From NCBI GenBank assembly GCA_003164675.1, contig PLTX01000020.1, positions 7,580 through 71,579 of the forward strand: DNA of 64,000 bases, read 5' to 3'. Of this stretch, positions 36,156 to 57,181 are shown one piece after another. The notes beneath the pieces are model-generated. The model saw nothing but the letters and a program-made list of their open reading frames with translations, searched no databases and had not been told where the DNA came from. The stretch comes from Verrucomicrobiota bacterium (GTDB lineage: Bacteria > Verrucomicrobiota > Verrucomicrobiia > Palsa-1439). Both the position numbers and the translations under genes were made by a program. How positions within the stretch are numbered: position 1 is the stretch's first letter; every line of letters begins with the position of its first letter.

Positions 36156-37721
36156 TCACTCGGGCTTGCGCGCGTAGATGGCGGTAACGTCATCGGCATA
36201 GGCCAGGGTCCAATCCTTCCGTAACGAGAACAGCACATTCAGCGGATGCGCGCGCGGAAGAATCGTCCAGCCGACATCGTATTTGTGCAGGACCGTTTCC
36301 CAATTGGTTCCAACCGTGTTCACGCTGCTGAACTCGCGGACGAGATCGGGGCCGTAGAAGTCGTTGCGACCATCCACGAAAACCCGGTGGGCCGGCATCG
36401 TCAGCATGAGGTAGCCTCCCCAACCGTAGTCGTTGAACATTTCGCCACGGACGGCTTGAGGATGGGCCGTCACGAACTGGACTGCGGCGACGGGGAAGCG
36501 GTTGGAAAGCACGTCGGTGGTGATCGCGGGCTTGCCGCCAACCAGATTTGGTTTGGCCAGGACCGCCACGAGCGCAAGGAGTGCCACCGCGACCGTCGCC
36601 CGGCCATCTGCGGTGCGATTCCGCGTGGTCACGTTCTCCGAGAGTCGGCGATAGAAATTGAGCAAGCGGCCGGGCCTGGCGTTTGCGAGGCCGTCCTGCC
36701 ATTGCTTTGCGAGGATGGGGGTGACGACCAGCGCGAAGATCGGTATATTGCGCGCAGCCAAAAGGGCCAGCAATCCCCACGTGCCCATGACAACGACGTC
36801 GGTTGGGCGCATCACCGGCCGCAGAAACACCAACGTCAGCCCGATCACCGCGAACTCGATCAGGAGTCCGTGCGCGGCAGCGGAGTGGAAATCCGGGGAG
36901 CGAAACTCGTTCGTGTAGTGGGCGAGCACGGGGTTTAGGAGGAATTCGACAACATGCGCCGGGAGCTGCCAACCGTTCGGATTGAGAAGTGTGACCAGCG
37001 CGCAACAGATCAGCAGTAACCCGAGGCCAATGAGCTTGCTTCGGATTGCGGGCCGGGCATCGGCCCGGGCTGTGATCAATGTGATGGCATTGCCGACAAC
37101 GAACGTGGTGGTGATGACGAAACCCGTGAAGAACGCGCCGTGCAGATTCACCCACAACGCCATCAGCGGCACGAGCCGCCAAAGCAACGAGCGCGTTCCC
37201 AGTTGTCCCCGGTCAAAACGCCGCAGATAGCCGGAGAAAATGACGGTGAGCAAGAGCGTAAACAGGTGCGGTCGGGCCAACCAATGCACCGTGCCGGCCA
37301 TTGCCGCGACCAATGTCAGCGCGGTGGCGGGCAAGAGGCCAATTCCTTCTGATAGTAGTTGTCGGTGCAAGAGCCACAGACAGGTTGCGATCAGCACCGC
37401 GGCCAACAGCGCAATGCCGTTCCACCCCAACGCGTCACCGGCGGCGGCAAACAACACCTCGCTCAACCACTCTTTGGAGATCAGTGGCGCGTTGGCCCGC
37501 GTATGGGAAAACACGTCGGCGCGAATCACGGCGTGGTGTTCGATCATCCAGTTGCCAATGCGCCAATGCAGGCACGCGTCGCCATCGGAGTTGATCATCA
37601 CCACGCGCCACTGTGACAACATCAGCCCCAGCACGAAGATCAGCCACAACGACAACCCGATGGTTGGCAGCCACCGAGAGCGTGGCGGGGACGATTGATC
37701 CTGGAGGGGGGCGTCGGTCAT
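36156..37721 (-). CDS. Polytopic membrane protein, GT-C-like (paralog C)
   Basis: DGDACLHWRIG, DVFSHT, KEWLSE, RPHLF, WVNLHGAF, FNDYGWGGYL, FVDGRNDFYG; ATGA overlap. Confidence 0.8.
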   Translation of the reverse strand: MTDAPLQDQSSPPRSRWLPTIGLSLWLIFVLGLMLSQWRVVMINSDGDACLHWRIGNWMIEHHAVIRADVFSHTRANAPLISKEWLSEVLFAAAGDALGWNGIALLAAVLIATCLWLLHRQLLSEGIGLLPATALTLVAAMAGTVHWLARPHLFTLLLTVIFSGYLRRFDRGQLGTRSLLWRLVPLMALWVNLHGAFFTGFVITTTFVVGNAITLITARADARPAIRSKLIGLGLLLICCALVTLLNPNGWQLPAHVVEFLLNPVLAHYTNEFRSPDFHSAAAHGLLIEFAVIGLTLVFLRPVMRPTDVVVMGTWGLLALLAARNIPIFALVVTPILAKQWQDGLANARPGRLLNFYRRLSENVTTRNRTADGRATVAVALLALVAVLAKPNLVGGKPAITTDVLSNRFPVAAVQFVTAHPQAVRGEMFNDYGWGGYLMLTMPAHRVFVDGRNDFYGPDLVREFSSVNTVGTNWETVLHKYDVGWTILPRAHPLNVLFSLRKDWTLAYADDVTAIYARKPE

Positions 37722-39253
37722 GACACACGCGAGAAAACGAGCGTCAATTGGTTCGAGTACACCAGCGTCCATTGCGGGCTGAATTCCAGAATTCGATTCA
37801 GCGGATGTTGCACGGGCAGGATCGTCCAGCCGACGTCATACTTCCCGAACACGGCTTCCCATCCCAGCTTCGGCTCGTCAGCGGTGCGAAATTCGTGGAA
37901 CAGATCAATGCCGTAGGAATAGTTGCGGCTGTCGATGAAGGGTTTTCGTTGCGGAAGGGCGAACTCGATGTAGCCACCCCAAAGGAAGTAGTTGAACATT
38001 TCTCCGCGGACCACGTCGGGGTGCATGCGCACGTAATCAAGGGCGGCAACCGGGTAACGGTCGGGCGGAAAACCAGTCGGAAACAGGGGCGCGCCACCGG
38101 CGATCCCGGGTTTGGCCAGCACCAACAGCACACCAACTGCAGCAATCGCGATGACGGTGGCATCGGCCTTGTGGCCGGTATTGGGTATCCCAACGGTCCA
38201 ATCACGGTATCGTCGAACCCACGCGGAGTCCTGATTGGCCCGCGTGAACTCCGTAAACCATTGTGCGAGTATCGGGGTCACGACCAGTGCGAAAATGGGC
38301 ACGTTGCGCGCCGAGAGCAGGGCAAAATAACCCCACCCGCCAATGACCAGGACATCCGTCGCATTCAGTTTCGGACGACTAATGATCAACCCGGTTGCCA
38401 GCAATAACAGCAATAGCAGAAACCCGTGCATGCCCGTGGTGTGGAAGTTGGGCGAACCAAATTCAGTGGTCACGGTTGAAAGCTCGCGCGATCCCAGGAA
38501 GCTCACAATCTGCGCAGGCAACCTCCAACCGACCGGGTTTATCAAACAAGCGGCGCCGCAAATCGCAAACAGTGCGGCAAGCTGTTTGAGTTTGGCCTGC
38601 GAAGCAGATTGACGCCATGCATCAATCGCGCTGCCGACCGCGTACATGGCGATCAACACCAGACCCGTCGGAAACGCACCATGCAAGTTCGCCCACAGCA
38701 CCATCAGCGGCGGAAGAAGCACGAACAATCGACGCGCGGGAATGCGCCCCTGCTGAAACCATCGCAATTGCCAGGCGAATACCAGGGTCAGGAGATGCGT
38801 GAACAAGAGCGGTCGCGCCAGCCAGTGCATCGAGCAGGCGAACATCGCCGCCAATACCAGGACAGTTGCGAGCGCCGCGCGGCAGCCTTCCGCCAGCAGT
38901 TGGCGATGGAGCAACCAGAAGCAGGTGGCGATGAGCGATGCCGCCAGCAACACGACACCGTTCCAGCCGAACCATTGGCCGGCAGCGGCCACGAGCACCT
39001 CACTGAGCCATTCCTTGGCCATGGATGGCCCGTGGTACGTGTGCAGCAGATTGTCTTCGCGTACGATGGCGTGGTGTTGGATCATCCAGTCGCCGAGCCG
39101 TTGATGCAGCGCGGGGTCGCTGTCCCCGCTGATGAGCACGATTCGGGCGCTGGTGAAATTCAGACCCAGAAACAGAATCACCCAGAGCAAAGCGCTGAGG
39201 GAAGGAAGCCACCAGCGCCGTTGCGCATCGGGATGGGGTGAAGCTGGGTTCAC
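37718..39253 (-). CDS. Polytopic membrane protein, GT-C-like (paralog B)
   Basis: DSDPALHQRLG, KEWLSE, WANLHGAF, FNYFLWGGYI; GTGA overlap. Confidence 0.8.
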   Translation of the reverse strand: MNPASPHPDAQRRWWLPSLSALLWVILFLGLNFTSARIVLISGDSDPALHQRLGDWMIQHHAIVREDNLLHTYHGPSMAKEWLSEVLVAAAGQWFGWNGVVLLAASLIATCFWLLHRQLLAEGCRAALATVLVLAAMFACSMHWLARPLLFTHLLTLVFAWQLRWFQQGRIPARRLFVLLPPLMVLWANLHGAFPTGLVLIAMYAVGSAIDAWRQSASQAKLKQLAALFAICGAACLINPVGWRLPAQIVSFLGSRELSTVTTEFGSPNFHTTGMHGFLLLLLLLATGLIISRPKLNATDVLVIGGWGYFALLSARNVPIFALVVTPILAQWFTEFTRANQDSAWVRRYRDWTVGIPNTGHKADATVIAIAAVGVLLVLAKPGIAGGAPLFPTGFPPDRYPVAALDYVRMHPDVVRGEMFNYFLWGGYIEFALPQRKPFIDSRNYSYGIDLFHEFRTADEPKLGWEAVFGKYDVGWTILPVQHPLNRILEFSPQWTLVYSNQLTLVFSRVS

Positions 39254-40800
39254 GGTTGTTTGTGAAACACGGCGGCCACTTCGTTGGAATATGCGCAATG
39301 CCAGCCGGGCAACAGCGCCAGCGCGAGGTTGAGGCGATGATCGGCGGGCATCAGCGTCCAATCCACGTGGTACTGTTCGAGGGCCTGCTGCCAATTCGTG
39401 TGCAGAAGGGACGTATCGTCGTACTGGCGAATCAGCGATTCGCCGTAGAAATCAGTGCGGCCATCCACAAACACGCGGTGTTCGGGTAACGCGTACATCA
39501 GATAGCCGCCCCACACGTAGTAGTTGAACATGTTTCCCGTGAACAGGTCGGGGTGTTGGTGGATGTAGGCCACCGCGTCGACCGGCCATTTCTTCGCGGG
39601 GATTTCCGTCGGGTGACGAAACACCACGATCGCCACGATGGCCACCACGCCGACCAGCAACCATGCCCGTGACATCTCGTAAATGTCACGCAGCCGTCCC
39701 GACATTCCCCGCACCCACAAGGGCGCGGCGTCGGCGAGTGCGGTCGCGAGGACCGGGGCCACAAAGATGACCGCCAGCGGAATATTGCGCACGGAATAGA
39801 GAGCAAGATACGTCCACGCAATCAACAGCACCGCCGACGTCGGTGACAGGCGCGGTCGTGCCAACGCCAGCGTCAGAAACGTCAGCGCCAGCCAGGCGAG
39901 GAACCCGTGCGAATCGAACGCGTGAAAATCCGACGAGGCGTACTCAGCCAGCCAGTTCGTCAGGTAGTCCGAGCGAAGGAAGTGAAGGTTGTGGACGTGG
40001 AGATGATAGCCGCTCGGATTGAGGAGCGAGACGACTCCGCAAAGTGCGATGGCGCCGGTGAACACCTTCAGCTTTTGTCGCACGGCGCCCGATCGAGTTT
40101 GGTCGGCGCGAGCCAATACCAATTCGATCACTGAGCCGAGCCAGTAGATGCCCAGCGTGATGAAACCAGCCAGATAGCCACCATGTAGATTGACCCACAG
40201 AAGTGTCAACACCCCCAGAGTGATGAGCAGACGACGGGCGGATTCACCGTGTTCGAAGCGGCGGAGCGCGTCCGACCACAACACCGCCAACAGGAAACTG
40301 AATGCGTGTGGGCGCGCCAACCAATGCGTGCAGGCTGCCCACGCGGCGATGAATGCAACCAGGATCGCGACTGCGTGATTGCCGGTTTCCCGCGCCAAGT
40401 GACGGTGTAACAGGGCGAACGTCGTGGCGATCAACAGCGCGGTCACGACGCACAAGCCGTAGAGTCCCCACATCCGGCCCGCCAGCGCAAAGATGATTTC
40501 CGAAAGCCATTCCTTGGAGATGATCGGCTCGCCGAGGCGCGTATGTGAAAACACGTCGGCGCGGATGATGTGGCCGGTTTGCAGCATGTATTTCCCGACG
40601 CGCCAATGCATGCAGGTATCGCCATCGCTGGAGGCCATCATCGTGCGCCACGGTTGCGCGAGAAGGATTAGTAAGATAACGAGCCACAACCATTGCGTGA
40701 GTGACGGCATCAGCCACGGCAGGATGCCGCCATACGACACCGGGCCGGAGTTTGGTTGTGGACGGGTCCCTGTCTCGGGAGCATTTGCGTTCGCCGCCAT
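39250..40800 (-). CDS. Polytopic membrane protein, GT-C-like (paralog A)
   Basis: DGDTCMHWRVG, DVFSHT, KEWLSE, WVNLHGGY, FNYYVWGGYL, FVDGRTDFYG. Confidence 0.8.
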   Translation of the reverse strand: MAANANAPETGTRPQPNSGPVSYGGILPWLMPSLTQWLWLVILLILLAQPWRTMMASSDGDTCMHWRVGKYMLQTGHIIRADVFSHTRLGEPIISKEWLSEIIFALAGRMWGLYGLCVVTALLIATTFALLHRHLARETGNHAVAILVAFIAAWAACTHWLARPHAFSFLLAVLWSDALRRFEHGESARRLLITLGVLTLLWVNLHGGYLAGFITLGIYWLGSVIELVLARADQTRSGAVRQKLKVFTGAIALCGVVSLLNPSGYHLHVHNLHFLRSDYLTNWLAEYASSDFHAFDSHGFLAWLALTFLTLALARPRLSPTSAVLLIAWTYLALYSVRNIPLAVIFVAPVLATALADAAPLWVRGMSGRLRDIYEMSRAWLLVGVVAIVAIVVFRHPTEIPAKKWPVDAVAYIHQHPDLFTGNMFNYYVWGGYLMYALPEHRVFVDGRTDFYGESLIRQYDDTSLLHTNWQQALEQYHVDWTLMPADHRLNLALALLPGWHCAYSNEVAAVFHKQP

Positions 40801-40846
40801 TTGCGGCAGCTTACGGAGCCACGCCGCAATGTTCAACGTCGAACTG
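40744..40846. repeat. 103-bp direct repeat, copy 1 (promoter plus first codons)
   Basis: 9 mismatches versus 42960-43062 by manual alignment. Confidence 0.95.
40808..40836 (-). promoter_or_regulatory. Sigma-70-type promoter, probably leaderless
   Basis: TTGAAC-N17-TAAGCT, 7 nt before ATG 40800; no SD. Confidence 0.65.
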
Positions 40847-43016
40847 CGGCCGGCCGACGCAGAATCGCAATCAAGTAGAAAGCCCCGACGAGAATGACGA
40901 GCGCGCGGATCCCGGTCACAAACGACAACGATTCCAGCAATCCGCCAGCCAGTGCCCCGATGAGGTTCGAGCCGAGCGCACGGGCTTTATCCGCACACAC
41001 AGCGAAGGAGCGAATAAAGATCAGGCCCGCGAAGAACGCCGGTGCGGTCAGGAACCCGCTGGCGGCGATCAGCTTGGTCGCGCCCGTTAACGAGTTGAAC
41101 GAGTCGAGTGGCACGAGCGCCAGTACCATGACAGTGGCAGCCAGTCCGGTGATAACCACCCACTGCGGCAGGCGTGGCCAGCGCCAAGCGACGAGATTAG
41201 CCAGCAAAATTATCACCAACACGGCGGAGATGACGATGGCGTTGACCACCCATGTCATGCCGAATAACAGCGTCGCACGGCTGACGGTCTGTACTTCCAG
41301 CAATAGGAACGCCGCGCCCAGCGCGAAGAAATGCCAATCGGCTCGCGTGTTCCTTTGCAGCGCGCGACGCCCCGCCGTCATCACTGCCAAGAGAATGCAT
41401 CCCGAGACGATCAGATGCAGTTTGGGGATTTCTGCCCGCTTGAGATACAAGTACGGCCAATCATCGGTCGTGGGTCGGGTCGTGCCAGGCGGATGCAACT
41501 GGCAGGCGGTAACAAACTCGCGCAAGGCGGGGTCCTGAATCACCGTCGGTGTCACCGGGTGTTCACCGGTGACCAGGGTGACCGTTGGCAGGTGTTTCGA
41601 CGTTCCGGAAGCCAATTCTTCGGAGTAGACAAATGGATCGTGTCCGAACGCTTGCCGGAGCACGGTGAACAAACGGTCGGCGATCCACGCTCGCTGGGCC
41701 CCGAAGTCGACGACCAGCAAACCATCCGGTGCCAGCAGCCTTCTGGCTTCAGCGAAACTCTCCAACGTGTACACGTAGTGGTCGAGGCGCATGTTGTTAT
41801 ACGATGACCCAATGGTGTGGGAGTCAAGCAAGCCGAACCAAATCAGGTCATACGGTCCGGTGGATTGCTTGAGGAATGCGCGCGCGTCATTCACAATCAT
41901 GCGCACCGACGGAGAGCTGTACGGTCGCTCGGGGTGGATTCGCTGGCCGAGGGCGTAGATTTGGGGATCAATTTCGACACAGTCCACCTGGCGAGCACCG
42001 TGACGAAGAGCCGCGGCCGCATTGTTGCCGGCGCCGGCGCCGACAATCAGTATGCGGCGCGCATCCGGTTTGAAGCTGAAGGGGACATTATAGTGGTTGC
42101 GATCCAGTGGCTCCTTGGAGAACAATTCCGGGTGCGCCGCCACGAAACGGTCTGACAAATCGAGCGCGGCCTGGTAGGTGGTCCCGTTAACCTGCACGAG
42201 ATAGCCCCGCTGCACCCGATTGGTTCCAAACGTCGAGATGAGCGGTGAAATGGAAAGCTTCTGATAGGGCGACCAAATCGTGACACTGGATGAGCGTCCG
42301 CCCGCCCACATCGCCGCTGCTCCCGCGAGCGTGAGGATGACGGGTAGCCAGGGTCGCACTCGCCCCGCCAGGAGGGTCATGGTCAGCAGCGCCGTCACAA
42401 CCAGCATCCAGGCCGTCGGCGGAGTGGACGCCCAACTCAGGCCGTTAAACAGCCATGCTCCGGCGAGACTGCCTCCGATATTGATTGAGTAGGCCCGGAT
42501 CACCTGCGGGGCGTCCTGCATGGATCGCCCAAGAATCTGCCCCAACGGCACGAATATCAAGGCAAGCAGATACAAGAGAATCCCGATCAGGATGATGCCC
42601 GCCACGAAATCCAAGCCGCCCGCGCCCGCCATTTCCTGCCAGATCGGGGCGTCTTCGGAACCGCTAAACAAGTACGTCACGAACCTGAATTCGAGCGGTT
42701 CCCAATGCAGCGGGTTGGCGACAAGCGTGACCAACAGGAAGAGGTTCAATCCCATCCGCCCGAAAGACGCTGGTCGGCTGGACCAATAACACCCGAGGCC
42801 GACTCCGAAGAAGCAAACGACCAGAACCAGGTTGCCAAGGTAGGCGAAGATACGGATCTCCGTGCCGATCCAGCGGATCATGACCAGTTCCAGAAACAGA
42901 ATCAGAGCGCTGACGATGAGGATCGTCGCGTCACATCGAACAAGGGAACTGTGGAGCGCGCCGGGGTTTGGTTGTGGACGAGACTCCGTCTCGGGAACAT
43001 TTCCGTTCGCCACCAT
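40833..43016 (-). CDS. Membrane-fused spermidine-synthase-like SAM-binding protein
   Basis: N- and C-terminal TM bundles; WSPYQK, IVGAGAGNN, VEIDP, NDARAFL, YVYTLES, TDDWPYLY. Confidence 0.85.
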   Translation of the reverse strand: MVANGNVPETESRPQPNPGALHSSLVRCDATILIVSALILFLELVMIRWIGTEIRIFAYLGNLVLVVCFFGVGLGCYWSSRPASFGRMGLNLFLLVTLVANPLHWEPLEFRFVTYLFSGSEDAPIWQEMAGAGGLDFVAGIILIGILLYLLALIFVPLGQILGRSMQDAPQVIRAYSINIGGSLAGAWLFNGLSWASTPPTAWMLVVTALLTMTLLAGRVRPWLPVILTLAGAAAMWAGGRSSSVTIWSPYQKLSISPLISTFGTNRVQRGYLVQVNGTTYQAALDLSDRFVAAHPELFSKEPLDRNHYNVPFSFKPDARRILIVGAGAGNNAAAALRHGARQVDCVEIDPQIYALGQRIHPERPYSSPSVRMIVNDARAFLKQSTGPYDLIWFGLLDSHTIGSSYNNMRLDHYVYTLESFAEARRLLAPDGLLVVDFGAQRAWIADRLFTVLRQAFGHDPFVYSEELASGTSKHLPTVTLVTGEHPVTPTVIQDPALREFVTACQLHPPGTTRPTTDDWPYLYLKRAEIPKLHLIVSGCILLAVMTAGRRALQRNTRADWHFFALGAAFLLLEVQTVSRATLLFGMTWVVNAIVISAVLVIILLANLVAWRWPRLPQWVVITGLAATVMVLALVPLDSFNSLTGATKLIAASGFLTAPAFFAGLIFIRSFAVCADKARALGSNLIGALAGGLLESLSFVTGIRALVILVGAFYLIAILRRPAAVRR

Positions 43017-43062
43017 TTGCGGGAGCTTACGGAGCCACGCCGCAATGTTCAACGTCGAACTG
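42960..43062. repeat. 103-bp direct repeat, copy 2
   Basis: Same TTGAAC-N17-TAAGCT promoter (43024-43052) 7 nt before ATG 43016. Confidence 0.95.
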
Positions 43063-43104
43063 GACGGGGAGATGTGCTAATGGGGACAGCATGCGGAGCG
43101 GACG

Positions 43105-44370
43105 ATGAACTGGTGGCGGCGGCTGGCGACGTACCGAATACTCGATGTCGGGGCCGTTGCGCTTACGGTGTCGGTTCTTGTCTGGTGGTCCGTGGTACTT
43201 CCGCCGCGCTGGAATGATTACGATTTCAATCATTATTACGTCAGCGGCCGGATGCTATTGAACGGGCAGAATCCGTATACGACGTCGTTGGAGGCGGTCA
43301 GCCATGCATTGGGTTTCCACTTTGCGGCGGACCTGCCGATCGCCACCTATCCCCCGTTGTTTCTCTGGATGTTCGCAGCGTTGGCCGCGCTACCGCCTAA
43401 GGTGACGTTCGCCGCATGGGTGGCGTTGGAAATCATTTGCCTTGTGATCATCCTCTGGCTGATCCGCCGGGTGCTCGGAGAAAGATTGCCGACACGGGGT
43501 TGGCTGTTCGTGGTGGCGCTGACGATCATTTCGCGACCACTAAGCTACAACCTGTATTACTCGCAGCCACAACTACTGTTGGCGGCTTTGGTCCTGGGCG
43601 GCTACGCCGCGCACCTCACTGGTCGGCATGGATGGGCATGCGTCGCGGTGTCGGTGGCGGGAATGCTCAAACTTTATCCGTTCATCTTGCTGCCATGGTT
43701 CATATGGTCTGGCAGCGGGGGTGTGCGTGGTCGATGCCGTCGGCTGGTCGGTGTTCTGGGGCTTATCGTGGCCGTGGTCGCCGCCACTGGACCCGGCCTC
43801 TGGCGGGATTTTTTCCAGTATGGAATGCCGGCGATTACCGTGTGGGAACAGGCCGGGCGAACGTTTCACTTTTCTCTGCCGGCCTTGGTCACCGACCTGG
43901 GATACATCCATGACAATTTCAATCCGTCTGCGGTAGCCAGACAATGCTGGTGGCTTGCGGGGACCCTGACGGGTTTTGGGGTCTTCGTTGCCGCCTACCG
44001 TATGTGTGCGACATCACGGCCCGATCCGGAAGCGCAATTCTGCCTGTTATGCACCGCGATGTTGATCGGGACGGTCACGGTGCAAGGCCATTATTTTGTG
44101 TTCTTGGCATTTCCACTAACGGTCGCGGCGCTTCGCATTGCGGCAAGGCCGACCGGGGGGCAGGTCATTTACTTGATCCTGTTGCTGCTGGCTTTCAATT
44201 GTGTTGATCCGCCAAATTCGCCGTTCTTCGAAAGGCATGTGCTCTTGTATCTGCTGGCTGGCAATGTGCCACTCTATGGGCTTTTCGCATTGGCGATTTT
44301 TTTCTGGTTGGAACTGCGCGGTCATCAAGCGGCGACCCCCAGCTCAGCCATCGGATGCAACCAACGGTAG
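43105..44370 (+). CDS. GT87 (DUF2029)-like membrane glycosyltransferase 1
   Basis: DFNHYY, GQNPY, TYPP, Q, KLYP motifs; polytopic. Confidence 0.82.
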   Translation: MNWWRRLATYRILDVGAVALTVSVLVWWSVVLPPRWNDYDFNHYYVSGRMLLNGQNPYTTSLEAVSHALGFHFAADLPIATYPPLFLWMFAALAALPPKVTFAAWVALEIICLVIILWLIRRVLGERLPTRGWLFVVALTIISRPLSYNLYYSQPQLLLAALVLGGYAAHLTGRHGWACVAVSVAGMLKLYPFILLPWFIWSGSGGVRGRCRRLVGVLGLIVAVVAATGPGLWRDFFQYGMPAITVWEQAGRTFHFSLPALVTDLGYIHDNFNPSAVARQCWWLAGTLTGFGVFVAAYRMCATSRPDPEAQFCLLCTAMLIGTVTVQGHYFVFLAFPLTVAALRIAARPTGGQVIYLILLLLAFNCVDPPNSPFFERHVLLYLLAGNVPLYGLFALAIFFWLELRGHQAATPSSAIGCNQR

Positions 44371-44460
44371 CGCGGCTGTCTTCCGGTGCCGGGCTGGCGA
44401 TGTTTGGGCTGGAGGCTTCGGACAAATTCTGCTAGTGGACGGAACCGTGTGACAAAAGAG

Positions 44461-45702
44461 ATGAACAAGTTGCGGCGGCTGGCTCGGAACCGCCTGCTGG
44501 ATGCGGGGGCAGCCGTGCTCATACCATTGTTCCTCTACAAGTGGGCCGTGATTCTTCCGTCACGCTGGTCGGGCTTCGATTTCAATCACTTCTACGTAAG
44601 TGGCTGGATGTTGCTGAAGGGACAAAATCCTTACACGACCTCGGTTGAGGCGCTGAGCCATGCGATGGGGTTCGAATTTGCTACGTACCTGCCAATCGCC
44701 ACGTATCCACCAGCGTTTCTTTGGATATTTGCGGCACTGGCGGCGCTACCGCCGCGCGCGGCATTTGCCATCTGGGTGGCGCTGGAACTGATTAGTCTGG
44801 CTGCTGTCTTGTGGTTGACGTGTTGGTTGCTGGGAGAACGATTGTCGTCGCGGGGCCGGCTATTTGTGGTGGCGCTGACGGTTATGTCGCAGTGTGTGAT
44901 GTATCATCTTCTGTTCTCACAGGCACAACTGTTATTGGCCGCGCTGGTCTTGGCTGGGTACGCTGCGCAACGTGCCGGACGGCATGGTTGGGCGTGCATG
45001 GCGGTTGCCACGGCCGGGATTCTCAAATGTTATCCATTCGTCTTGCTGCCATGGTTCGTGTGGTCCGGCAACGGTGGTGCGCGCGGTCGATGTCGTCGGT
45101 TGATCGGAGTAACCGTGTTTGTCCTGGCGGGGGTTGCCTTGACGGGCTCTGCCCTCTGGCGAGATTTTCTTCGGTACGGGCTACCTCTTGCTCTTCAGGA
45201 CGAAGCCGGGAGAACATTTCACTTTTCGCTGCCGGCGCTGGTGATCAATCTCGGCTATTTGCAGTACAACCTACACCCCCCTGAGCAAGCCAGACACTGG
45301 TGGTGGATCGCCGGCACCCTGGTGAGCGTTGGAGTTCTTGCGTTTGGATATGCCGTGTGTGTGGCGTCGCGGCGTGATCCGGAAGCGCAATTCTGCCTGC
45401 TGTGCACCATGATGTTAATCGGGACGGTCGCCGTGCAAGGGCACTACTTTGTCTTTCTCGTGTTTCCACTGACGGTAATGGCAGTGCGCATCGCAGCGAA
45501 ACCCTCCCCGTCAGGGGTGATCAGTTTGATGCTGCTGGTACTGGCCTTCAATTGTCTCCAACCACCCGGTTCGGCCTTTTTCGGGGGGCATCAATTCTTG
45601 TATCTACTGGTTAGCGATCTGCCATTGTATGGGCTTCTGGCGTTGGCTGCATTCTTCTGGCGGGAGCTCGGCAACATCCAAACTGAGGCAGGCGTAGCTT
45701 GA
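44461..45702 (+). CDS. GT87 (DUF2029)-like membrane glycosyltransferase 2
   Basis: DFNHFY, GQNPY, TYPP, KCYP; close paralog of upstream gene. Confidence 0.82.
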   Translation: MNKLRRLARNRLLDAGAAVLIPLFLYKWAVILPSRWSGFDFNHFYVSGWMLLKGQNPYTTSVEALSHAMGFEFATYLPIATYPPAFLWIFAALAALPPRAAFAIWVALELISLAAVLWLTCWLLGERLSSRGRLFVVALTVMSQCVMYHLLFSQAQLLLAALVLAGYAAQRAGRHGWACMAVATAGILKCYPFVLLPWFVWSGNGGARGRCRRLIGVTVFVLAGVALTGSALWRDFLRYGLPLALQDEAGRTFHFSLPALVINLGYLQYNLHPPEQARHWWWIAGTLVSVGVLAFGYAVCVASRRDPEAQFCLLCTMMLIGTVAVQGHYFVFLVFPLTVMAVRIAAKPSPSGVISLMLLVLAFNCLQPPGSAFFGGHQFLYLLVSDLPLYGLLALAAFFWRELGNIQTEAGVA

Positions 45703-45758
45703 GTAGATTCGTAAAGAAAACCGTAATTCCAGTATAGCCTTAACGCGGTAGCTTTGTT

Positions 45759-48862: not shown

Positions 48863-48935
48863 CCTACAGCTGTTTGCGCGGGAGGGACGTGAATTCGCGT
48901 GTGTGAGAACGAGGAGACAAGACGTTTAAGAAAAA

Positions 48936-48983
48936 TGTCCAGAAACTGAACACTCTGTCGTGACATGTTCAGACCATTGGTCA
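48936..48983. promoter_or_regulatory. Putative enhancer sites for a sigma-54 activator
   Basis: TGTCCAG-AAA-CTGAACA inverted repeat plus a second TGTTCAG half-site, about 150-190 bp upstream of the sigma-54 site. Confidence 0.45.
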
Positions 48984-49126
48984 GGAATGCGAATTCACCA
49001 GAATATCCATTTAGTTTGCACCTGATGGATGGTAATTACCACGTGTATCTTAACATATTGACGAACAAGATATTGCATAAATATCCACGCGCATCTCTTC
49101 TGCGCAGTCTCGCGCTACCAAGTCCG

Positions 49127-49142
49127 TGGCACGCATGCTGCT
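49127..49142 (+). promoter_or_regulatory. Putative sigma-54 promoter of flp
   Basis: TGGCACGCATGCTGCT (GG-N10-GC). Confidence 0.65.
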
Positions 49143-49217
49143 GGCATAAATGGGCGTAAACGCAAGTCTGTCGGGTCGGTAGATGAAGAAGAGAATCAGA
49201 TGAAGGAGGTGAATGTG

Positions 49218-49391
49218 ATGAAGAATACTCTCCGAAAACTGTACGTCGGTTTGAAGTCGCGCAAGGGCCAGAGCTTGGTTGAATACGCGCTGATTCTGGC
49301 GCTCATTGCTGTCGTGGCGGTGTTGGTGCTGAGGGGCCTCGGTGCCCACATCAATAACACGCTGTCAACTGTGAATGCGAACTTGCCGTAA
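49218..49391 (+). CDS. flp: Flp family type IVb pilin
   Basis: KG|QSLVEYALILALIA; AAGGAGGT SD. Confidence 0.95.
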   Translation: MKNTLRKLYVGLKSRKGQSLVEYALILALIAVVAVLVLRGLGAHINNTLSTVNANLP

Positions 49392-49417
49392 CTTGGCAAC
49401 TAAAACATGCCCAAGAT

Positions 49418-49449
49418 GGGGGTGAAGAGGCAGCAACCTCTTCACCCCC
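49418..49449 (+). terminator. Hairpin after flp
   Basis: GGGGGTGAAGAGG-CAGCAA-CCTCTTCACCCCC followed by a T-rich stretch. Confidence 0.75.
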
Positions 49450-49773
49450 GTTGGCTTTTCTATCCCTCTCTTGTTGCCTTCTGACTTGGCACATCCATGA
49501 GCCTGAAGTGGTGATCCAATCCGCGCATCGCGTTGACTCTCTGGACCGTTCTCTTTGCACTGACTACCATGGCCACATGGGGTTCAATTTCTGCAAGGTG
49601 CATAACACGCTCGGCACGACACCGGCTCATGGGACTGGTATCGCTGACGGGTCGTGGACAATCGAGAAACTGATTGAGGGGGCAACAACTTGTGGACACT
49701 AGCAACAATCTGTTAGCCCACGACCCACGCTCTCTCTCGTTTCTCAATTTTGATATTGCATTTTGTTCATTAA

Positions 49774-49789
49774 AGGCACAGCATTTGCT
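49774..49789 (+). promoter_or_regulatory. Putative sigma-54 promoter of cpaB operon
   Basis: AGGCACAGCATTTGCT (GG-N10-GC), AT-rich upstream. Confidence 0.6.
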
Positions 49790-49835
49790 TGCCTTAGCTC
49801 AATTAAAGTCGAACACGTCGAACAAGGAGGACTCA

Positions 49836-50669
49836 ATGGCTAAGAAACCAGGTGCTGGCGGTATTATACTGGCGGCAGTGATCCTAGGACTCATCGCGGC
49901 CTACATGATCTACCGGCTCGAAAGCAATCGAGAAAAACAGGCCAAAGAGCACTGGATTCCGATCGTGGTTGCTCGTGAGGACATCCCCGCGCGCACCAAG
50001 GTCACCAGCGACATGGTTACATTGATGCCCTACCCCAAAGACCTTCTCACGTCTGGAGCCGTGCAGGACCGCAAGGAAGTGGAGGGGCGCGTTACCCTGG
50101 TGCGACTCAAGGCCAAAGAGCAGATTCGATCCTCAGATCTTCTGGCGGAGGGCCAGACACCGAGTCTCTCCTATGACATCCCGGACGGCATGAGGGCCAT
50201 CGCCATTGCGGCCAGCGAAATCAGCGCGGCCGGCAACGCCGTCAAGCCCGGTGACCACGTAGACATTTTAGCGACATACTCTGAACCCAACACGCATCAA
50301 GAGACAACACGGCTGGTGCTGCAGAATGTTCCCGTACTGGCAGTCAACCAGGCCGAAACGAATACCCAGGGGCCAACGGGCGCCAAGAGCTCGATGACGC
50401 TTGCGGTCAAGCCCGAAGAAGCCGAGCTCCTGATGGCAGCTGACCGCGCGGGCGTGTTGCGCGTGATGCTTCGCGCTCCTACGGACAAGAAGACCATTGA
50501 CAGCCAGGGTGTGACTGTCCGTGACATTCAGGGATCGAAGACATTTGAAGTGGCCCCACGCGCTCCGGATGCACAATCCACCCCGATCATTATTTCGCCG
50601 TCAAATCGTCAGCGGTCGGAAATCATAGTTTTCCGAGGCACACAAGAGCAGACGGTGGGGACACAATAG
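49836..50669 (+). CDS. cpaB: Flp pilus assembly protein CpaB/RcpC
   Basis: TM, SAF domain VVAREDIP, GMRAIAI, KPGDHVDI, LQNVPVLAV; AGGAGG SD. Confidence 0.93.
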   Translation: MAKKPGAGGIILAAVILGLIAAYMIYRLESNREKQAKEHWIPIVVAREDIPARTKVTSDMVTLMPYPKDLLTSGAVQDRKEVEGRVTLVRLKAKEQIRSSDLLAEGQTPSLSYDIPDGMRAIAIAASEISAAGNAVKPGDHVDILATYSEPNTHQETTRLVLQNVPVLAVNQAETNTQGPTGAKSSMTLAVKPEEAELLMAADRAGVLRVMLRAPTDKKTIDSQGVTVRDIQGSKTFEVAPRAPDAQSTPIIISPSNRQRSEIIVFRGTQEQTVGTQ

Positions 50670-50723
50670 GAACCGCCAGCAAGAGTTTCGAAACAAAAGG
50701 ACACATCGAAAGGACACATAAAG

Positions 50724-52190
50724 ATGAAGATGAACCAATGGAGCGCGGTAACGGGGATAATCGTGGTAGTGTTGGCTCTCGGACTGTTCTCGGCTCCGTA
50801 CGCCCATGCTCAGCAGAGCATTCAGGTCGGCGTTGGCGAGGCGGTCACGATTCCTGGCGAGAATATCGCGAAGGTCGCCATTGCCGACCCCCTGTGCGCG
50901 GATGTGGTGCCCCTTTCTGACAAGGAAATCAGCATCATCGGCAAGAAGGCCGGCGTCACCAGCTTGACGATCGTCAAAAACGACGGCTCGCCGACCCAGT
51001 TGACCCGCATCGAAGTGGTCAACGATGCCGCAGCGCTGACCATTCGTGAGATGATCGGGAACTCGAACATTACCGTGCGGGCCATTGGCGATTCGTTGGT
51101 GCTCGACGGCAAGGTGGACGACGAGCTCGTCGCGCAACGCGCTGTGCAGGTCGCCACCGCCTTCAAACCCCAGGTTGTGAATCTGCTCGAGATCGCGAAA
51201 CCCCGCCAAATCAGGGTGCGCACCCGCATTGCGGAAGTGAATACGGAAGCCATCAAGAACATCGGACTCCAGTGGTTTGGGCCTCAAGGTCAGGTGCAGT
51301 ACGCCATGCAGTACATGGGCGGTGGTTCCATTATCAGTGGTTTTATTCCCACCTCGAGCGAATTCGGAACGCCCGGAACCACGATTCAGGCCAATACCGT
51401 CACCATGGACGTGCTCCTGGATGTGTTGATTTCCAAGAGTTACGCGAGACTGCTCTCCGAGCCTACGTTGGTGACGTTCAGCGGCAAAGAAGCGAGCTTT
51501 CTTGTTGGGTCGGAGATCCCGATTGTCGAACAGTTGCCGCAATCGTTCACCGTGGAATTCAAAGAGGTCGGCGTACGGATGAAGATCAAGCCGGTGGCCG
51601 ACAGCGAAAACCGCATCAACACGACCATTCATGCGGAAGTCAGTCAGCTCTCGGGGACCAGTGTCAGTGGGCTGCCCGTCATCAGTTCCAAATCGGCGGA
51701 CACGGTCCTGCAGGTCAACAACGGACAGACGATCGTCATCGGCGGCTTGCTGGAGAACAACATCAACAAGGACGTTCTGCGGAAGTTGCCCTGGCTGGGT
51801 GACATTCCGGTGATTGGCGCGCTGTTTCGCGACAAGCAGTTCGACCAGGCCAAGCGTGAAGTTCTGTTCTTCATGACACCGGAAGTGCTGAGAGACTCCC
51901 AAGACGGTCTCGTGGCCACCGGGGTGCAGACGCCCGCAATGAGGGACTGGGTGACCACGTGGCGCAAGGGAGGTCTGATTAACCGTCGTGATGAGGCCAA
52001 GAAGGACGACTGGGGTCTGCACAACGCTGATCACCTCGGGTTTCCCTATCACGATTCATCTGACGAACCGCATGCCAAATCTAGACTGAAGAACGCAAAG
52101 CCGGCGGGCGGTGATTCGAAGGCTGCGGCGACCGCAGCTTCAGGACCGGATACATCAACGAACTTCTCTCCGGCCCGGCCGGCGGAGTAG
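50724..52190 (+). CDS. cpaC: Tad secretin CpaC/RcpA
   Basis: VAIADP, LSEPTLVTFSGKEASFLVGSEIP, GQTIVIGGLL, LPWLGDIPVIGALF. Confidence 0.93.
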   Translation: MKMNQWSAVTGIIVVVLALGLFSAPYAHAQQSIQVGVGEAVTIPGENIAKVAIADPLCADVVPLSDKEISIIGKKAGVTSLTIVKNDGSPTQLTRIEVVNDAAALTIREMIGNSNITVRAIGDSLVLDGKVDDELVAQRAVQVATAFKPQVVNLLEIAKPRQIRVRTRIAEVNTEAIKNIGLQWFGPQGQVQYAMQYMGGGSIISGFIPTSSEFGTPGTTIQANTVTMDVLLDVLISKSYARLLSEPTLVTFSGKEASFLVGSEIPIVEQLPQSFTVEFKEVGVRMKIKPVADSENRINTTIHAEVSQLSGTSVSGLPVISSKSADTVLQVNNGQTIVIGGLLENNINKDVLRKLPWLGDIPVIGALFRDKQFDQAKREVLFFMTPEVLRDSQDGLVATGVQTPAMRDWVTTWRKGGLINRRDEAKKDDWGLHNADHLGFPYHDSSDEPHAKSRLKNAKPAGGDSKAAATAASGPDTSTNFSPARPAE

Positions 52191-52273
52191 AATCAGGGAC
52201 AGTGATGAAGGAGGATTGCCGGTATCGAACGTGCTGGGTTGCCGGCAGGGGGATGTAGGCCATAGACATAGAC

Positions 52274-53491
52274 ATGGATCACATCAACGTCATCATCGCC
52301 GAAAATGAGTTGGGCGAACGGGAAAAGCTGAAGAGCCAGCTGGCTGGCGAATCGGATATTCAGGTCGTTGGTGAAGCGCGGGACGGCAAGGAGTGTTTGG
52401 ATCTCGTCAGCCGCCACCGGCCGGATGTCGTCCTCATCAAGGAGGATTTGCCGGTGGTCAACGGACTGGCAGCCGCCGAACAGATCAGCACGGATCTGCC
52501 CGACGTGGGTGTTATCCTCATTCTCACGGGTTCGGAAGGTCAGGAAGTCTGGCATAAGATGTTGCGTGCGGGCATCAAGGAATTCATTACCCGCCCGGTC
52601 ACAGCCGACCGTCTGCTCGAAGAAGTCCGCAAAGTGGCGGCCATTCAGGCCAAAGCGTTCAAGCGGGCCGGCACGACTCCCCCCACGCCAACAGCAGCAC
52701 AACCCGAAGCCCCGAAGCATCGCGTCGTCACCATCACCGGTCCGCGTGGCGGTTGTGGGAAGACCGTGATTGCCACCAATCTCGCTGTCGCCCTCGCCAG
52801 GGCCAGTGAGAAGGTGGCGCTGGTGGACCTGAACCTTTGGGGCGGCGATGTCGCCATGCTGTTGGATGTGTCACCGAAACGAACACTCGGCGACCTCCTT
52901 CCCGGCTTCGGGGGCATCGACTACGATGTCGTGGACAGTGTCATGTCGAAACACCCGACCGGCGTATCGGTCTTGGCCGCGCCATTGACCGGGACATTTG
53001 ATGGGTCGACGCTTTCCCGCTACATGGTGCAAAGCATCCTGGAAGCGCTTCGGGAACATTACGAATATATTATCGTCGATACGGGCTACGCCAATTTGGA
53101 ATCGACTCTCGCCGCAATGGATTACTCGGACCTGATCCTCGTTGTGGTGGGCATGGATTTGCCGCGACTGCGCGATGGCAAGCTGTATTTGAAGAACCTG
53201 CTGGCCGCCAACTACCCGAAAGAGAAGATCCGTGTCATTGTCAATCGGGCAACCAACTCGAAGGAAATCTCTTCGACGGAGGTCGAGACAATCCTGGAGT
53301 TTCCGGTGACGGTTCAAATCCCGAGCGATGACGCGCTCGTGGGTTCCTCGGTGAACCTGGGACAGACCTTCGTCAGCTCGAGCCCAAACAAGCCGGTGAC
53401 CAGGGCGCTGTTGGAGCTGGCAGAGGCCATGGCGCCGGGCGCCTCCCTCGAGAAGAAGCGGACCGGACGATGGTTTTCGTTCCTGCAATGA
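52274..53491 (+). CDS. cpaE: CpaE/TadZ: receiver-like plus MinD-like ATPase
   Basis: REC-like N-terminus; GPRGGCGKT, VDLNLWGGD, IVDT. Confidence 0.92.
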   Translation: MDHINVIIAENELGEREKLKSQLAGESDIQVVGEARDGKECLDLVSRHRPDVVLIKEDLPVVNGLAAAEQISTDLPDVGVILILTGSEGQEVWHKMLRAGIKEFITRPVTADRLLEEVRKVAAIQAKAFKRAGTTPPTPTAAQPEAPKHRVVTITGPRGGCGKTVIATNLAVALARASEKVALVDLNLWGGDVAMLLDVSPKRTLGDLLPGFGGIDYDVVDSVMSKHPTGVSVLAAPLTGTFDGSTLSRYMVQSILEALREHYEYIIVDTGYANLESTLAAMDYSDLILVVVGMDLPRLRDGKLYLKNLLAANYPKEKIRVIVNRATNSKEISSTEVETILEFPVTVQIPSDDALVGSSVNLGQTFVSSSPNKPVTRALLELAEAMAPGASLEKKRTGRWFSFLQ

Positions 53492-53520
53492 ATGTAAGCT
53501 AGAACAGAGCGTGGCATATT

Positions 53521-54819
53521 ATGGCGACTACCCCTGAAATCAGTGCGCAGTTATATTCGGAGTCCAAGAACGCAATTCTGGCGTATCTGGTCCAAAATAT
53601 CGACCAGAAGCTGCTCGAAAAAGGGGATGAAGCACTGTTACGCCGCCGGGTCGAAGAGCTCGTCGAGGAAAAACTTCGCTCGGAGAAATTGCCGTTCTCG
53701 CGTCAGATGCGCAACCGGCTCGTCTCGGACATGGCCGACGAAATCCTCGGCTTTGGCCCCATTGAGCCGCTTCTGCGCGATCCGACCGTCACCGAAGTCA
53801 TGGTCAACCGACCCGACCAGGTGTACTGCGAGCGTTTTGGCAAACTGGAATTGACGGACATTCAGTTTCGAGACTTCGAACATATCCGTCACGTCATCGA
53901 TAAGATCGTCACCCCGCTCGGCCGTCGCGTGGACGAGTCCAGCCCGATGGTCGACGCCCGCCTCCCCGATGGCTCCCGTGTCAACGCCATCATCTCGCCG
54001 CTCTCGCTCAACGGCCCGGTGCTGACGATCCGTAAATTCTCGGTTGACCCCTACACCGTCGAAGACCTCATCGGCTTCGGCACGATGACCCAGGGCATGG
54101 CGGCGTTTCTGGCGGCGTGTGTGAAAATCAAACTGAACATCTTGGTTTCCGGCGGTTCGGGCGCCGGCAAAACGACGCTGTTGAACGTGCTTTCCTCCTT
54201 CATTCCCGAGGGCGAGCGCGTGGTCACCGTCGAGGACGCCGCGGAATTGAAGCTGCACCAACCACACGTCGTGCGGCTGGAGGCGCGCCCGCCCAACATC
54301 GAAGGCAAAGGTGAAGTCAGGATTCGCGACCTCGTCCGCAACTGTCTGCGTATGCGCCCCGATCGTATCGTGGTTGGCGAAGTGCGTGGCGGCGAGGCGC
54401 TGGACATGTTGCAGGCCATGAACACCGGCCACGAAGGTTCCATTTCCACAATTCACGCCAACACGCCCCGCGACGCGCTGGCCCGTATCGAGACCATGGT
54501 GATGATGGCGGGGATGGAGCTGCCCTCACGCGCGATCCGCGAGCAGGTGGCCGCAGCCATTCACCTGATCGTGCAGGTGGGTCGTTTGAGCGACGGCAGC
54601 CGCAAAATCATTAGTGTGAGCGAAGTCCAGGGCATGGAAGGCAACGTCATTGTGTTGCAGGACTTGTTTACGTACCAGCAAAAGGGCATTGGCGAAGGGG
54701 GCAAGGTCTTGGGAACAATGCAGGCCACCGGCATGGTTCCGAAGTTCATTGAACGCTTCAATGCTTCCGGAATGCATTTGCCACCGGAAATTTTCAAGAG
54801 AACAAGTGAGATTCGGTAG
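53521..54819 (+). CDS. cpaF: Tad ATPase CpaF/TadA
   Basis: [43 protein letters not shown]. Confidence 0.97.
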
Positions 54820-54820
54820 T

Positions 54821-55816: not shown

Positions 55817-55819
55817 CCC

Positions 55820-56755
55820 ATGCTTATCTTTGCCATTTTCACAATCTTCGTTGCCGTCATTCTGGGCGCTGTCGGTTTTTACCGTACCTCCTCTCAGTTC
55901 GCCGTCGAGAAGCGTATCGAACGAATCATGACGGCCGATGCGGAGACGCCCGAGGAGGAACTGGCGAAGCCGTTTGTCCAGCGCGTGCTCTTGCCTCTCG
56001 GCGATTCCGTGGCGAAATTGTTCCGTGGATATACGCCGACAGAAGTGGCCGAACGCACGCAAAAGAAGCTCGTCATGGCGGGCCTGTATCCCCGCGTGAC
56101 GTCCGTGCAATTGATCGGGCTGTGCTGGTTCAGCGCGGCGGGCTGCATGATCCTGATGTTCCTGATGATTCTGGCGCTGGGCACGGCGCCTGGAGGCGAT
56201 TTCAAATATGCTGATCCGTGGAACATTGCCTACCTGTTGATTGGTGCGTTTGGCGGGTACATCCTGCCACAGTTCGTGCTCGGCCGAAAAGTGCGGCTCC
56301 GTCAGGAACAGATACTGGTGAATCTGCCCTACTCGATCGACATCCTCTCGATCAGCGTCGAGGCGGGCATGGGTTTTGACGCCGCCGTCGGATACACGAT
56401 GCGCAAAATCAAAGGGCCCCTCGCCGAGGAGTTCTCCAAGACGCTCAACGAAATCCGGCTGGGAAAACCCCGCTTGGAAGCACTGGATGACCTCGGCAAT
56501 CGTACGGGGGTCGACGACCTGAAGACGTTCATTACCGCGGTGGTGCATGCCAGCCGTTTGGGCGGCAGCATTACCAACACGCTTCGCATCCAGGCCGATT
56601 CGATCCGCACACGCCGGCGTCAGCGCGCCCAGGAACAGGCGATGAAGGCGCCCATCAAGATTGTTTTTCCGCTCGTGTTCTTCATCTTCCCATCGCTGTT
56701 TATCGTTTTGCTTGGCCCTGCATTGGTCAGCGTGTGGAACCAATTGGGGCAATAG
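55820..56755 (+). CDS. tadC: TadC inner-membrane platform protein
   Basis: SVEAGMGFDAA, AQEQAMKAPIKIVFPLVFFIFP. Confidence 0.93.
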   Translation: MLIFAIFTIFVAVILGAVGFYRTSSQFAVEKRIERIMTADAETPEEELAKPFVQRVLLPLGDSVAKLFRGYTPTEVAERTQKKLVMAGLYPRVTSVQLIGLCWFSAAGCMILMFLMILALGTAPGGDFKYADPWNIAYLLIGAFGGYILPQFVLGRKVRLRQEQILVNLPYSIDILSISVEAGMGFDAAVGYTMRKIKGPLAEEFSKTLNEIRLGKPRLEALDDLGNRTGVDDLKTFITAVVHASRLGGSITNTLRIQADSIRTRRRQRAQEQAMKAPIKIVFPLVFFIFPSLFIVLLGPALVSVWNQLGQ

Positions 56756-56776
56756 TCGGCGCAGGAACGGATTGTC

Positions 56777-57181
56777 ATGATATTGGTCAACGCCACCAAG
56801 AAAACGATGGTCTCTGACAAGTGCCATTTCGCCAATACGGTGCTCAAACGCATGGTGGGGTTGCTCAACCGCGGGCGAATTGAGAAGGGCGAAGGCTTGC
56901 TCTTGGACCGGTGCTACGGCATTCACACGATCGGGATGCGGTTCCCCATTGACGTGCTCTTTCTCGACAAGGATTTGCACGTGATTCGCGCCGTCAAGGC
57001 CCTGCCGACCTATCGCATCTGCGTGGTCAGGAAATCCGTGTACGTCCTGGAAGTCCCCGTCGGGGCGCTCGATGCCTCTTGCACCGAGGATGGCGACCAA
57101 ATCCAGATCCGCACCGCCAATAACGATACGACGACCAGCGCACGCGTCGCGGCGACGGACCAGATTCCATCCGGCTCGTAA
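56777..57181 (+). CDS. DUF192 family protein
   Basis: RMVGLL, IHTIGMRFPIDVLFLD, VLEVPVG. Confidence 0.88.
   Translation: MILVNATKKTMVSDKCHFANTVLKRMVGLLNRGRIEKGEGLLLDRCYGIHTIGMRFPIDVLFLDKDLHVIRAVKALPTYRICVVRKSVYVLEVPVGALDASCTEDGDQIQIRTANNDTTTSARVAATDQIPSGS

Follow-up and report, generated by a model that had tools for sequence, protein, structure and literature searches.

A block of GT-C-like membrane enzymes beside a Tad pilus operon in Verrucomicrobiota: a candidate glycosylation module for the Flp pilin

Why should the operon for a Tad pilus stand directly behind a long block of genes that encode only polytopic membrane proteins, most of them resembling sugar-transferring enzymes? The question is raised by a 64,000-nucleotide stretch of DNA (hereafter, the window) from a soil-type Verrucomicrobiota bacterium, representing contig C113 of a 3.6-Mb genome in 125 contigs that is 90% complete. 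At positions 36156-48862 the listing of open reading frames (ORFs) holds eight long ORFs, here called M1 to M8, and nothing further of note; all eight products are polytopic by hydropathy and three are paralogs, just as the original prediction had described them. M1-M4 lie on the minus strand and M5-M8 on the plus strand, the halves diverging from a gap of ~50-90 bp, and the nearest database proteins come from 'Verrucomicrobiae bacterium' metagenome-assembled genomes (MAGs). The genes flp-cpaBCEF-tadBC-DUF192 follow directly, each of them confirmed by Pfam, NCBIfam or, for flp, by reading. Our preferred answer, with a probability of about 0.55, is that the block is a periplasmic glycosylation module which uses lipid-linked sugars and is tied to the Tad pilus, the Flp pilin being its likeliest acceptor. 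The observations behind this answer are the folds and families of the encoded proteins and the conserved linkage of their genes. The block is made up as follows (GT, glycosyltransferase; MFS, major facilitator superfamily):

36156..37772, minus strand: M1, paralog of an unnamed GT-C family; no Pfam match; translation probably begins at residue 18, for a product of 521 aa
37718..39394, minus strand: M2, second M-family paralog; no Pfam match; 47% identity to M1; in family alignment A1
39250..40836, minus strand: M3, third M-family paralog; no Pfam match; 43% identity to M1
40833..43052, minus strand: M4, a membrane protein of MFS fold whose central loop carries a domain of spermidine-synthase fold; translation probably begins at residue 13
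43105..44370, plus strand: M5, GT87 glycosyltransferase of the GT-C class (PF09594, 82.5 bits, cut-off 25)
44386..45702, plus strand: M6, GT87 paralog of M5 (PF09594, 78.9 bits; ~72% DNA identity to M5)
45759..47261, plus strand: M7, un-annotated polytopic protein, probably a PMT_2/ArnT-like GT-C enzyme; no Pfam match
47141..48862, plus strand: M8, PMT_2/TMEM260-like GT-C enzyme (PMT_2, PF13231, 25.1 bits, cut-off 26.1)

The three paralogs M1-M3, at 43-47% identity to one another, carry most of the argument. A structure model of M1, used in a fold search, revealed the conserved GT-C transmembrane module, with STT3/PglB/AglB (GT66) as the best structural matches; the modelled architecture, a GT-C membrane domain followed by a periplasmic C-terminal globular domain, resembles that of the same enzymes. 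Sequence comparison gives no such match: none of 43 members (0/43) matched any Pfam model, STT3 included, at E <= 1 over the core of the family, and the family profile found no GT-C protein among the Protein Data Bank (PDB) sequences at E <= 10, just spurious kinase matches. Across 43 M-family sequences, D48 and H52 are invariant and D46 is nearly so, all three just after the first helix in a loop that is periplasmic according to the model. This Asp/His loop, together with further invariant polar residues, argues for a catalytic family, as far as residue conservation can tell. The C-terminal domain contains a conserved motif of the MFNxYxWGGY type, which is only loosely like the WWDYG motif of STT3-type enzymes, the likeness being one of sequence pattern alone.

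Does the position of these genes next to a pilus operon mean anything? Linkage to tad in other genomes had been set beforehand as a test of the idea, and for the M1-M3 family it turned out to be strong, both among relatives and across phyla. Among 41 related genomes, the window's own included, the M1 protein has matches in 29 (24/24 within the same family), CpaB in 27 and M8 in 23. Of the 29 genomes with M, 18 have the M array and cpaB on the same contig at a distance of 2-15 kb, any M8 homologs lying in between; two further genera of the window's family (G019, G022) and a second family of its order (G025) are represented among the 18. The most telling for linkage are the reduced loci, namely the one in G025, which reads GT87, then M, flp and cpaB through to DUF192, and the one in G019, where tad is followed by flp, flp, M and M. 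As to the other 11, six have M and cpaB on separate contigs of assemblies in ~250-490 contigs and are uninformative, three have fragments or distant paralogs only and no CpaB match, and two are weighed below. The content of the block varies among these relatives, from 2 to 5 or more copies of M and from 1 to 3 of M8, with M7 present or absent and M4 present, absent or broken, which fits a fast-evolving surface-glycan locus and names no selective agent; phage evasion, which the original prediction had offered as a possible role, is thus far a conjecture.

A wider scan took one genome per species and covered 79 loci, the best 80 of at least 593 matches, with the phylum of each locus taken from its database record. 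A locus was counted as positive when two or more of the six genes flp, cpaB, cpaC, cpaF, tadB and tadC were represented by blastp matches (E <= 1e-4) among the ORFs of its flanks, which extend up to 10 kb. By this measure 37/79 loci are tad-positive, and so are 25/37 of those with both flanks of at least 8 kb; of the 42 negative loci, 22 have a flank of less than 5 kb. The positives are distributed as follows:

Acidobacteriota: 26/32
Gemmatimonadota: 3/4
Desulfobacterota, two Geobacter-type isolates included: 3/4
Planctomycetota (an anammox MAG): 1/1
Verrucomicrobiota: 3/17
Chloroflexota: 1/17
Myxococcota: 0/2
'Deltaproteobacteria' MAGs: 0/2

The Verrucomicrobiota count is lowered because tad in the window's genus sits outside the 10-kb flank. 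The usual arrangement, all on one strand, is M, flp (1-3 copies), cpaB, cpaC, cpaE, cpaF, tadB and tadC. Flp is encoded by the nearest tad gene in 24/37 positives, with tadC or cpaB taking that place in 13/37, and in 20 positive loci the nearest tad gene, usually flp, is at most 256 bp away. A GT-C gene is thus found beside the gene for the major pilin, as in the TfpW system discussed below. In a FastTree phylogeny of 97 of the 114 family rows (17 rows from the redundant loci L051, L052, L053, L060 and L062 were omitted), tad-linked members occur in all three main clades, and M3 falls in a 14-row clade with L040 that also contains the single flp-adjacent M copy of G025.

The simplest alternative, that the adjacency has no functional meaning and reflects chance or a hitch-hiking genomic island, can draw on two features of the window itself, since flp seems to have a promoter region to itself and the block is split into two divergently oriented halves. 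Against it, the expectation by chance is only about 1%, a rough estimate from 1-3 tad loci of ~8 kb in a genome of 4-6 Mb and 10 kb of flank per side, as compared with 37/79 loci overall, 25/37 fully flanked ones, several phyla and all three clades of the tree. The adjacency recurs across genera, families and phyla and is therefore not a matter of chance; we regard this explanation as highly improbable. The link between the M family and tad is real, if not obligatory.

A cultured bacterium, Geomobilimonas luticola JCM 17780, has a locus that parallels the window's block. There, a tight co-directional string encodes a secretin, TadE/G-like proteins, a receiver-CpaE protein, CpaF, TadB, TadC, DUF192 and GT-C enzymes; after DUF192 come a PMT_2/TMEM260-like GT-C enzyme, a PTPS_related membrane protein, the M-family protein and a soluble S-adenosylmethionine (SAM) methyltransferase, and the string ends with an unknown protein of 673 aa and a GT2 of 273 aa, where a divergent MFS gene is also found. 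The like parts are the M family, a PMT_2-like GT-C enzyme, a methyltransferase fold and an MFS protein. The last two, however, are separate genes in G. luticola and fused as M4 in the window, and the GT2 gene beside the GT-C genes has no counterpart in the window's block.

Three observations on neighbours and kin of the M genes stand apart from the tad link. A sigma-70 gene adjoins M in several Chloroflexota loci and lies 1.7 kb off in the window; this was considered as a second linkage and rejected as coincidence, because the sigma factor of L070 is of the housekeeping type, with region 1.1 present, and the adjacency is not conserved in the Verrucomicrobial relatives. In the same L070 locus (8786-13131, a Chloroflexia MAG), the M gene lies between the sigma-70 gene and a convergent gene for a 547-aa UbiA-family prenyltransferase. 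Mycobacterial UbiA-type enzymes make polyprenyl-phosphate pentose donors, and this neighbour may hint at the donor used. Finally, a distant M-family paralog of the window's genome (G000:C35:28509-29960; L004, L049), with 27% identity, 751 aa and C-terminal tetratricopeptide repeats, lies away from tad and is kept in most genomes of the genus.

The remaining enzymes of the block broaden its apparent chemistry. That it would encode seven GT-C-like enzymes, a second point set beforehand as a test, was borne out to different degrees, by the M1 model and fold search for the M family, by Pfam for M5 and M6, at the level of the family for M8 and by transitive relationship, the weakest case, for M7. 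PMT_2 matches 12/13 relatives of M8 at E <= 0.01 (best 1.3e-9) and TMEM260-like models match 10/13, with no match of the M8 profile in the PDB. M7 is probably a PMT_2/ArnT-like GT-C enzyme as well, the weakest of the seven assignments: its 21 close relatives are 'hypothetical' wherever named, and none of the five members of the close family scanned matches Pfam (0/5). A full HMMER search gave 3946 representatives of M7, and of 54 distant relatives scanned 13 match PMT_2 (8 above cut-off) and no unrelated family recurs; its neighbours in the ESM Atlas are PMT_2/ArnT-like clusters at TM 0.85-0.87. Aligned with hhalign, M7 and M8 give a probability of 5.7%, and M8 and the M family one of 0.3%. 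Sequence searches thus link none of the four GT-C families of the block, which are connected only by fold or by intermediates. Candidates for supplying activated sugars lie outside the window, as 19 GT2-like matches are found elsewhere in the genome and none on the window's contig. In two places (G000:C14:12820-14526 and C121:66337-69763) GT87 matches lie 0.4-2 kb from GT2 matches, and it is possible that these pairs supply donors to the window's block too.

Such diversity is what one would expect if the block served a general envelope glycoconjugate (a lipoglycan, a lipopolysaccharide-like glycan or an exopolysaccharide) or many periplasmic and surface proteins, and stood beside tad through joint inheritance or regulation of adhesion-related surface traits, with no specific role for the pilin as acceptor. 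The presence of four different GT-C families, GT87 included, speaks for this explanation, as does the highly variable content of the block, which is typical of surface-glycan loci. Mycobacterial GT87 enzymes of the PimE type act on phosphatidylinositol mannosides and on lipomannan or lipoglycans, so that part of the block may have acceptors other than protein; the window data contain no sign of such lipids. M also occurs without tad in 12/37 fully flanked loci and in a whole Anaerolineae subclade (12 rows of the tree, none tad-linked), and the linked pilins share no conserved glycosylation motif. All of this weighs against a module dedicated to the Flp pilin, and further points can be added to the same side. 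Two class-level relatives (G028, G038) carry M on a long stretch without tad, and the tad-less loci have unrelated neighbours such as glycoside hydrolases, a housekeeping sigma factor and a UbiA-type prenyltransferase. The genomes compared above are kin, and counts within the family therefore overstate independence. In the window itself flp begins 356 bp downstream of the end of M8, the nearest GT-C gene, a gap which means that co-transcription with M5-M8 is not required. On the other hand, a general glycan gives no reason why the exact position should be kept across phyla (in 20 loci no more than 256 bp separate M from flp or cpaB, M generally preceding flp in the same orientation), nor why the association should persist where all other GT-C genes have been lost (G025, Acidobacteriota). 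On balance we hold a general envelope function to be unlikely, though it is the likeliest of the alternatives.

If the block is a module tied to the Tad pilus, which component would it modify? The pilus operon has the following features:

49218..49391, plus strand: flp prepilin, 57 aa, with a G/QSLVEY cleavage motif and a mature form of 40 aa; 82% identity to the Flp of a relative (G004)
49415..49452, plus strand: terminator-like hairpin after flp, a 16-pair stem followed by a T-run
49674..50669, plus strand: cpaB/rcpC (TIGR03177, 187 bits, cut-off 71); the true start is probably downstream
50724..52190, plus strand: cpaC/rcpA secretin (Secretin, 137.5 bits; T2SS-T3SS_pil_N)
52274..53491, plus strand: CpaE/TadZ-type ATPase with a receiver domain (Response_reg and CbiA/AAA_31)
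53521..54819, plus strand: cpaF/tadA ATPase (T2SSE, 220.7 bits), the sole copy in the genome
54650..55816, plus strand: tadB platform protein (T2SSF)
55820..56755, plus strand: tadC platform protein (T2SSF)
56777..57181, plus strand: DUF192 protein at the end of the operon (PF02643, 53.2 bits)

The relatives of CpaB align with it from about residue 22-48 onward. The genome carries one tad machine, as judged from the single CpaF match in G000. Neither a prepilin peptidase (TadV/CpaA) nor pseudopilins are encoded in the window; the sole A24 prepilin peptidase match is on contig C72, and TadE-like genes are on contigs C56 and C19. A DUF192 gene directly follows tadC in loci of Verrucomicrobiota, Chloroflexota, Geobacter-type bacteria, Gemmatimonadota and Akkermansiaceae and lies near tad in Acidobacteriota (L040, L041, L047, L075, L079, L082, L093, L098, L121 and L122 are loci with DUF192 near tad); it looks like a conserved, unstudied accessory gene of Tad systems.

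The pilin had been described as having a 40-aa mature tail with an NNT sequon. Forty residues is correct for the mature pilin as a whole, whereas the tail itself is shorter, ending in ...INNTLSTVNANLP. In an alignment of 15 M-linked Flp pilins an N-X-S/T sequon is present in just 6, which weakens the case for the pilin and gives no STT3-like rule of N-glycosylation, so that N-glycosylation at the sequon was dropped as a general rule; judged from the same alignment, the NNT of this genome is probably not the key, contrary to the importance that had been attached to it. Ser or Thr, by comparison, occurs in the tail of all 15. The M family therefore differs from STT3/PglB/AglB, with which it has the architecture in common, in having neither a sequence-level match to them nor a conserved sequon in the linked pilins. 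A prediction of the complex between M3 (residues 36-528) and the Flp prepilin, run with no controls, gave scores of 0.03 and 0.28 against a mark of 0.32 and counts neither way. On the comparative evidence, the Flp pilin is the likeliest acceptor.

The M-family protein might instead have its substrate elsewhere in the Tad machinery, for instance in TadE/F-type pseudopilins, in CpaB/RcpC or in the secretin, or it might be a non-catalytic assembly factor that has kept the GT-C fold. The linkage is to the whole tad locus, and tadC or cpaB is the nearest gene in 13/37 positives; in addition, RcpC has been implicated in Flp modification in Aggregatibacter (PMC12307814). Yet the commonest immediate neighbour is flp, in 24/37 positives, the pseudopilin genes of this genome are on other contigs, and the invariant Asp/His loop and other invariant polar residues favour catalysis. 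We consider this alternative improbable.

M4 is the member of the block that departs most from the GT-C pattern. Its membrane part has the two-lobe MFS fold, and a SAM-fold domain with the fold of SpeE (spermidine synthase) sits in the central loop. The earlier description of M4 as spermidine-synthase-like was right as to the Pfam match (Spermine_synth, 37.1 bits, cut-off 22.9) and the fold of the insert, and did not extend to function. In spermidine synthases an acidic residue (Asp) of the glycine-rich loop selects decarboxylated SAM, whereas the invariant loop of M4 is G-A-G-x-G-N, without Asp, and the scores for the equivalog models of NCBIfam are far below their cut-offs (42 bits, cut-off 472; 39 bits, cut-off 260), so that M4 as a true spermidine synthase was rejected. 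A periplasmic location of the SAM-fold domain, suggested by a hydropathy count of seven helices, was dropped as well, because the MFS fold places the insert in the central loop, which in MFS proteins is cytoplasmic. The same fold makes it doubtful that the block contains no flippase, as had been claimed; M4 is the only protein encoded there that could serve in transport or flipping. M4 has more than 3500 relatives, labelled 'SAM-dependent methyltransferase' or 'membrane-bound spermidine synthase', and nothing relevant to the M4 type was found in the literature on membrane-bound spermidine-synthase-like proteins. In one relative (G004, locus L046 11146-13616) the counterpart of M4 consists of some nine ORF fragments between intact neighbours, and M4 therefore seems dispensable there.

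A 106-nt segment occurs at 40741-40846 and 42957-43062 on the minus strand, in copies that are 91% identical and form the 5' ends of M3 and M4, two genes that are otherwise unrelated; the paralogs around it are only ~70% identical, and the genome holds just these two copies. Inspection by eye shows a promoter-like TTGAAC-N17-TAAGCT and after it, 36 nt into the ORF, an in-frame ATG, the position at which database gene calls begin M4. It may be a duplicated promoter-leader cassette.

In the preferred reading, a lipid-linked-sugar module acting on Flp, we infer from these elements which donor and acceptor are used, how the steps follow one another and what M4 does. GT2 enzymes encoded elsewhere in the genome would load sugars onto polyprenyl phosphate, and the lipid-linked sugar would then cross the inner membrane, a step that M4 alone among the block's products could serve, given its MFS fold and putatively cytoplasmic SAM-fold domain. 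An M-family GT-C enzyme would transfer the sugar to Flp, at its short C-terminal tail, before the pilin leaves the inner membrane, and the remaining M paralogs, together with both GT87 and both PMT_2-like enzymes, might lengthen or diversify the glycan. CpaF, TadB and TadC would finally assemble the modified pilin, with exit through the CpaC secretin.

Glycosylation by a GT-C enzyme encoded next to a pilin gene has a precedent. TfpW, encoded beside pilA, uses a lipid-linked sugar, made by genes located elsewhere, to glycosylate the type IVa pilin in the periplasm (10.1101/2020.04.19.049825). In group IV Pseudomonas aeruginosa (pilA-tfpW-tfpX) there is, as here, a GT-C membrane enzyme encoded by the pilin gene, with both sugar-synthesis and flippase genes elsewhere. 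TfpW, however, acts on large globular type IVa pilins, the partner here being a 40-aa Flp of the Tad pilus, and it reportedly resembles Emb/Aft arabinosyltransferases, as opposed to the STT3/PglB/AglB matches of the M family; the two are likened by description. Pilin glycosylation is also reported to protect against pilus-specific phages (10.1101/150227).

For Flp pilins themselves, Flp1 of Aggregatibacter actinomycetemcomitans has been reported to be glycosylated (PMC6182317), the modifying enzyme being unnamed in the accessible portion of that paper. The Tad pilus of Caulobacter, by contrast, is reported to show no additional density that could be put down to glycosylation (PMC10710030), and Flp glycosylation is therefore not universal, a further point on the unfavourable side. 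Known three-component systems of extracytoplasmic glycosylation combine a polyprenyl-phosphate GT2, a flippase and a GT-C enzyme (PMC11127046); the logic is the same, the window combining GT-C genes with an MFS-fold protein and G. luticola having GT2, MFS and GT-C genes side by side. The differences are that the window's block is without a GT2 or GtrA-like gene and that a pilin, in place of a polysaccharide, is the proposed acceptor. In the literature covered, with subscription journals and supplements outside that coverage, no description of a GT-C enzyme connected with Tad/Flp loci was found; no Flp-modifying enzyme was identified in the literature searched, and the stem 'glycosyl' occurs zero times in a survey of type IV filament systems (PMC6668835). 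Pilin-adjacent GT-C glycosylation is thus known, and its proposed extension to Tad pili through an unnamed, oligosaccharyltransferase-like GT-C family is probably new.

Taken further, the M family might be a dedicated Flp-pilin glycosyltransferase, an oligosaccharyltransferase-like GT-C enzyme that acts on the pilin in the membrane, before assembly, in at least five phyla; in Verrucomicrobia it might have been expanded and joined by GT87 and PMT_2-like enzymes and an MFS-SAM fusion, so as to make a multi-sugar coat that varies. This extended proposal is tentative, and we would put it somewhat short of even odds. Tad systems reportedly derive from an archaeal Epd-like pilus (PMC6668835). In archaea, AglB glycosylates pilins, and since the M family is built like STT3/AglB, one may speculate that this architecture is a remnant of archaeal machinery for pilin N-glycosylation which came with the Epd-like ancestor of Tad; we find this idea distinctly improbable.

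Two observations elsewhere in the window concern other subjects. At 12283-17105 a ketoacyl-synthase fusion protein of 753 aa, a B12-binding radical SAM enzyme and a radical SAM/DUF4070 protein form an unusual lipid- or polyketide-type trio unrelated to the tad block, and at 26908-28284 a 458-aa protein with a C-terminal Mrr_cat restriction-endonuclease domain is encoded within a stretch of lower GC content.

Tad/Flp pili are among the most widespread bacterial adhesion organelles, and a GT-C family of thousands of members, un-annotated so far, has a fixed place beside flp in Acidobacteriota, Geobacter and Verrucomicrobiota; the M4 type, an MFS transporter with a SAM-fold insert, is in turn a large uncharacterised group. 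If the preferred reading is true, the M family would be a concrete and testable candidate for Flp modification, with cultured hosts in Geomobilimonas luticola JCM 17780 and Geobacter sp. AOG1, and a large family of 'hypothetical' proteins in annotation pipelines would acquire a name. It would also add a new route of pilin glycosylation to the PilO/PglL and TfpW types, and would account for the heterogeneity of Tad pili in soil and freshwater bacteria.

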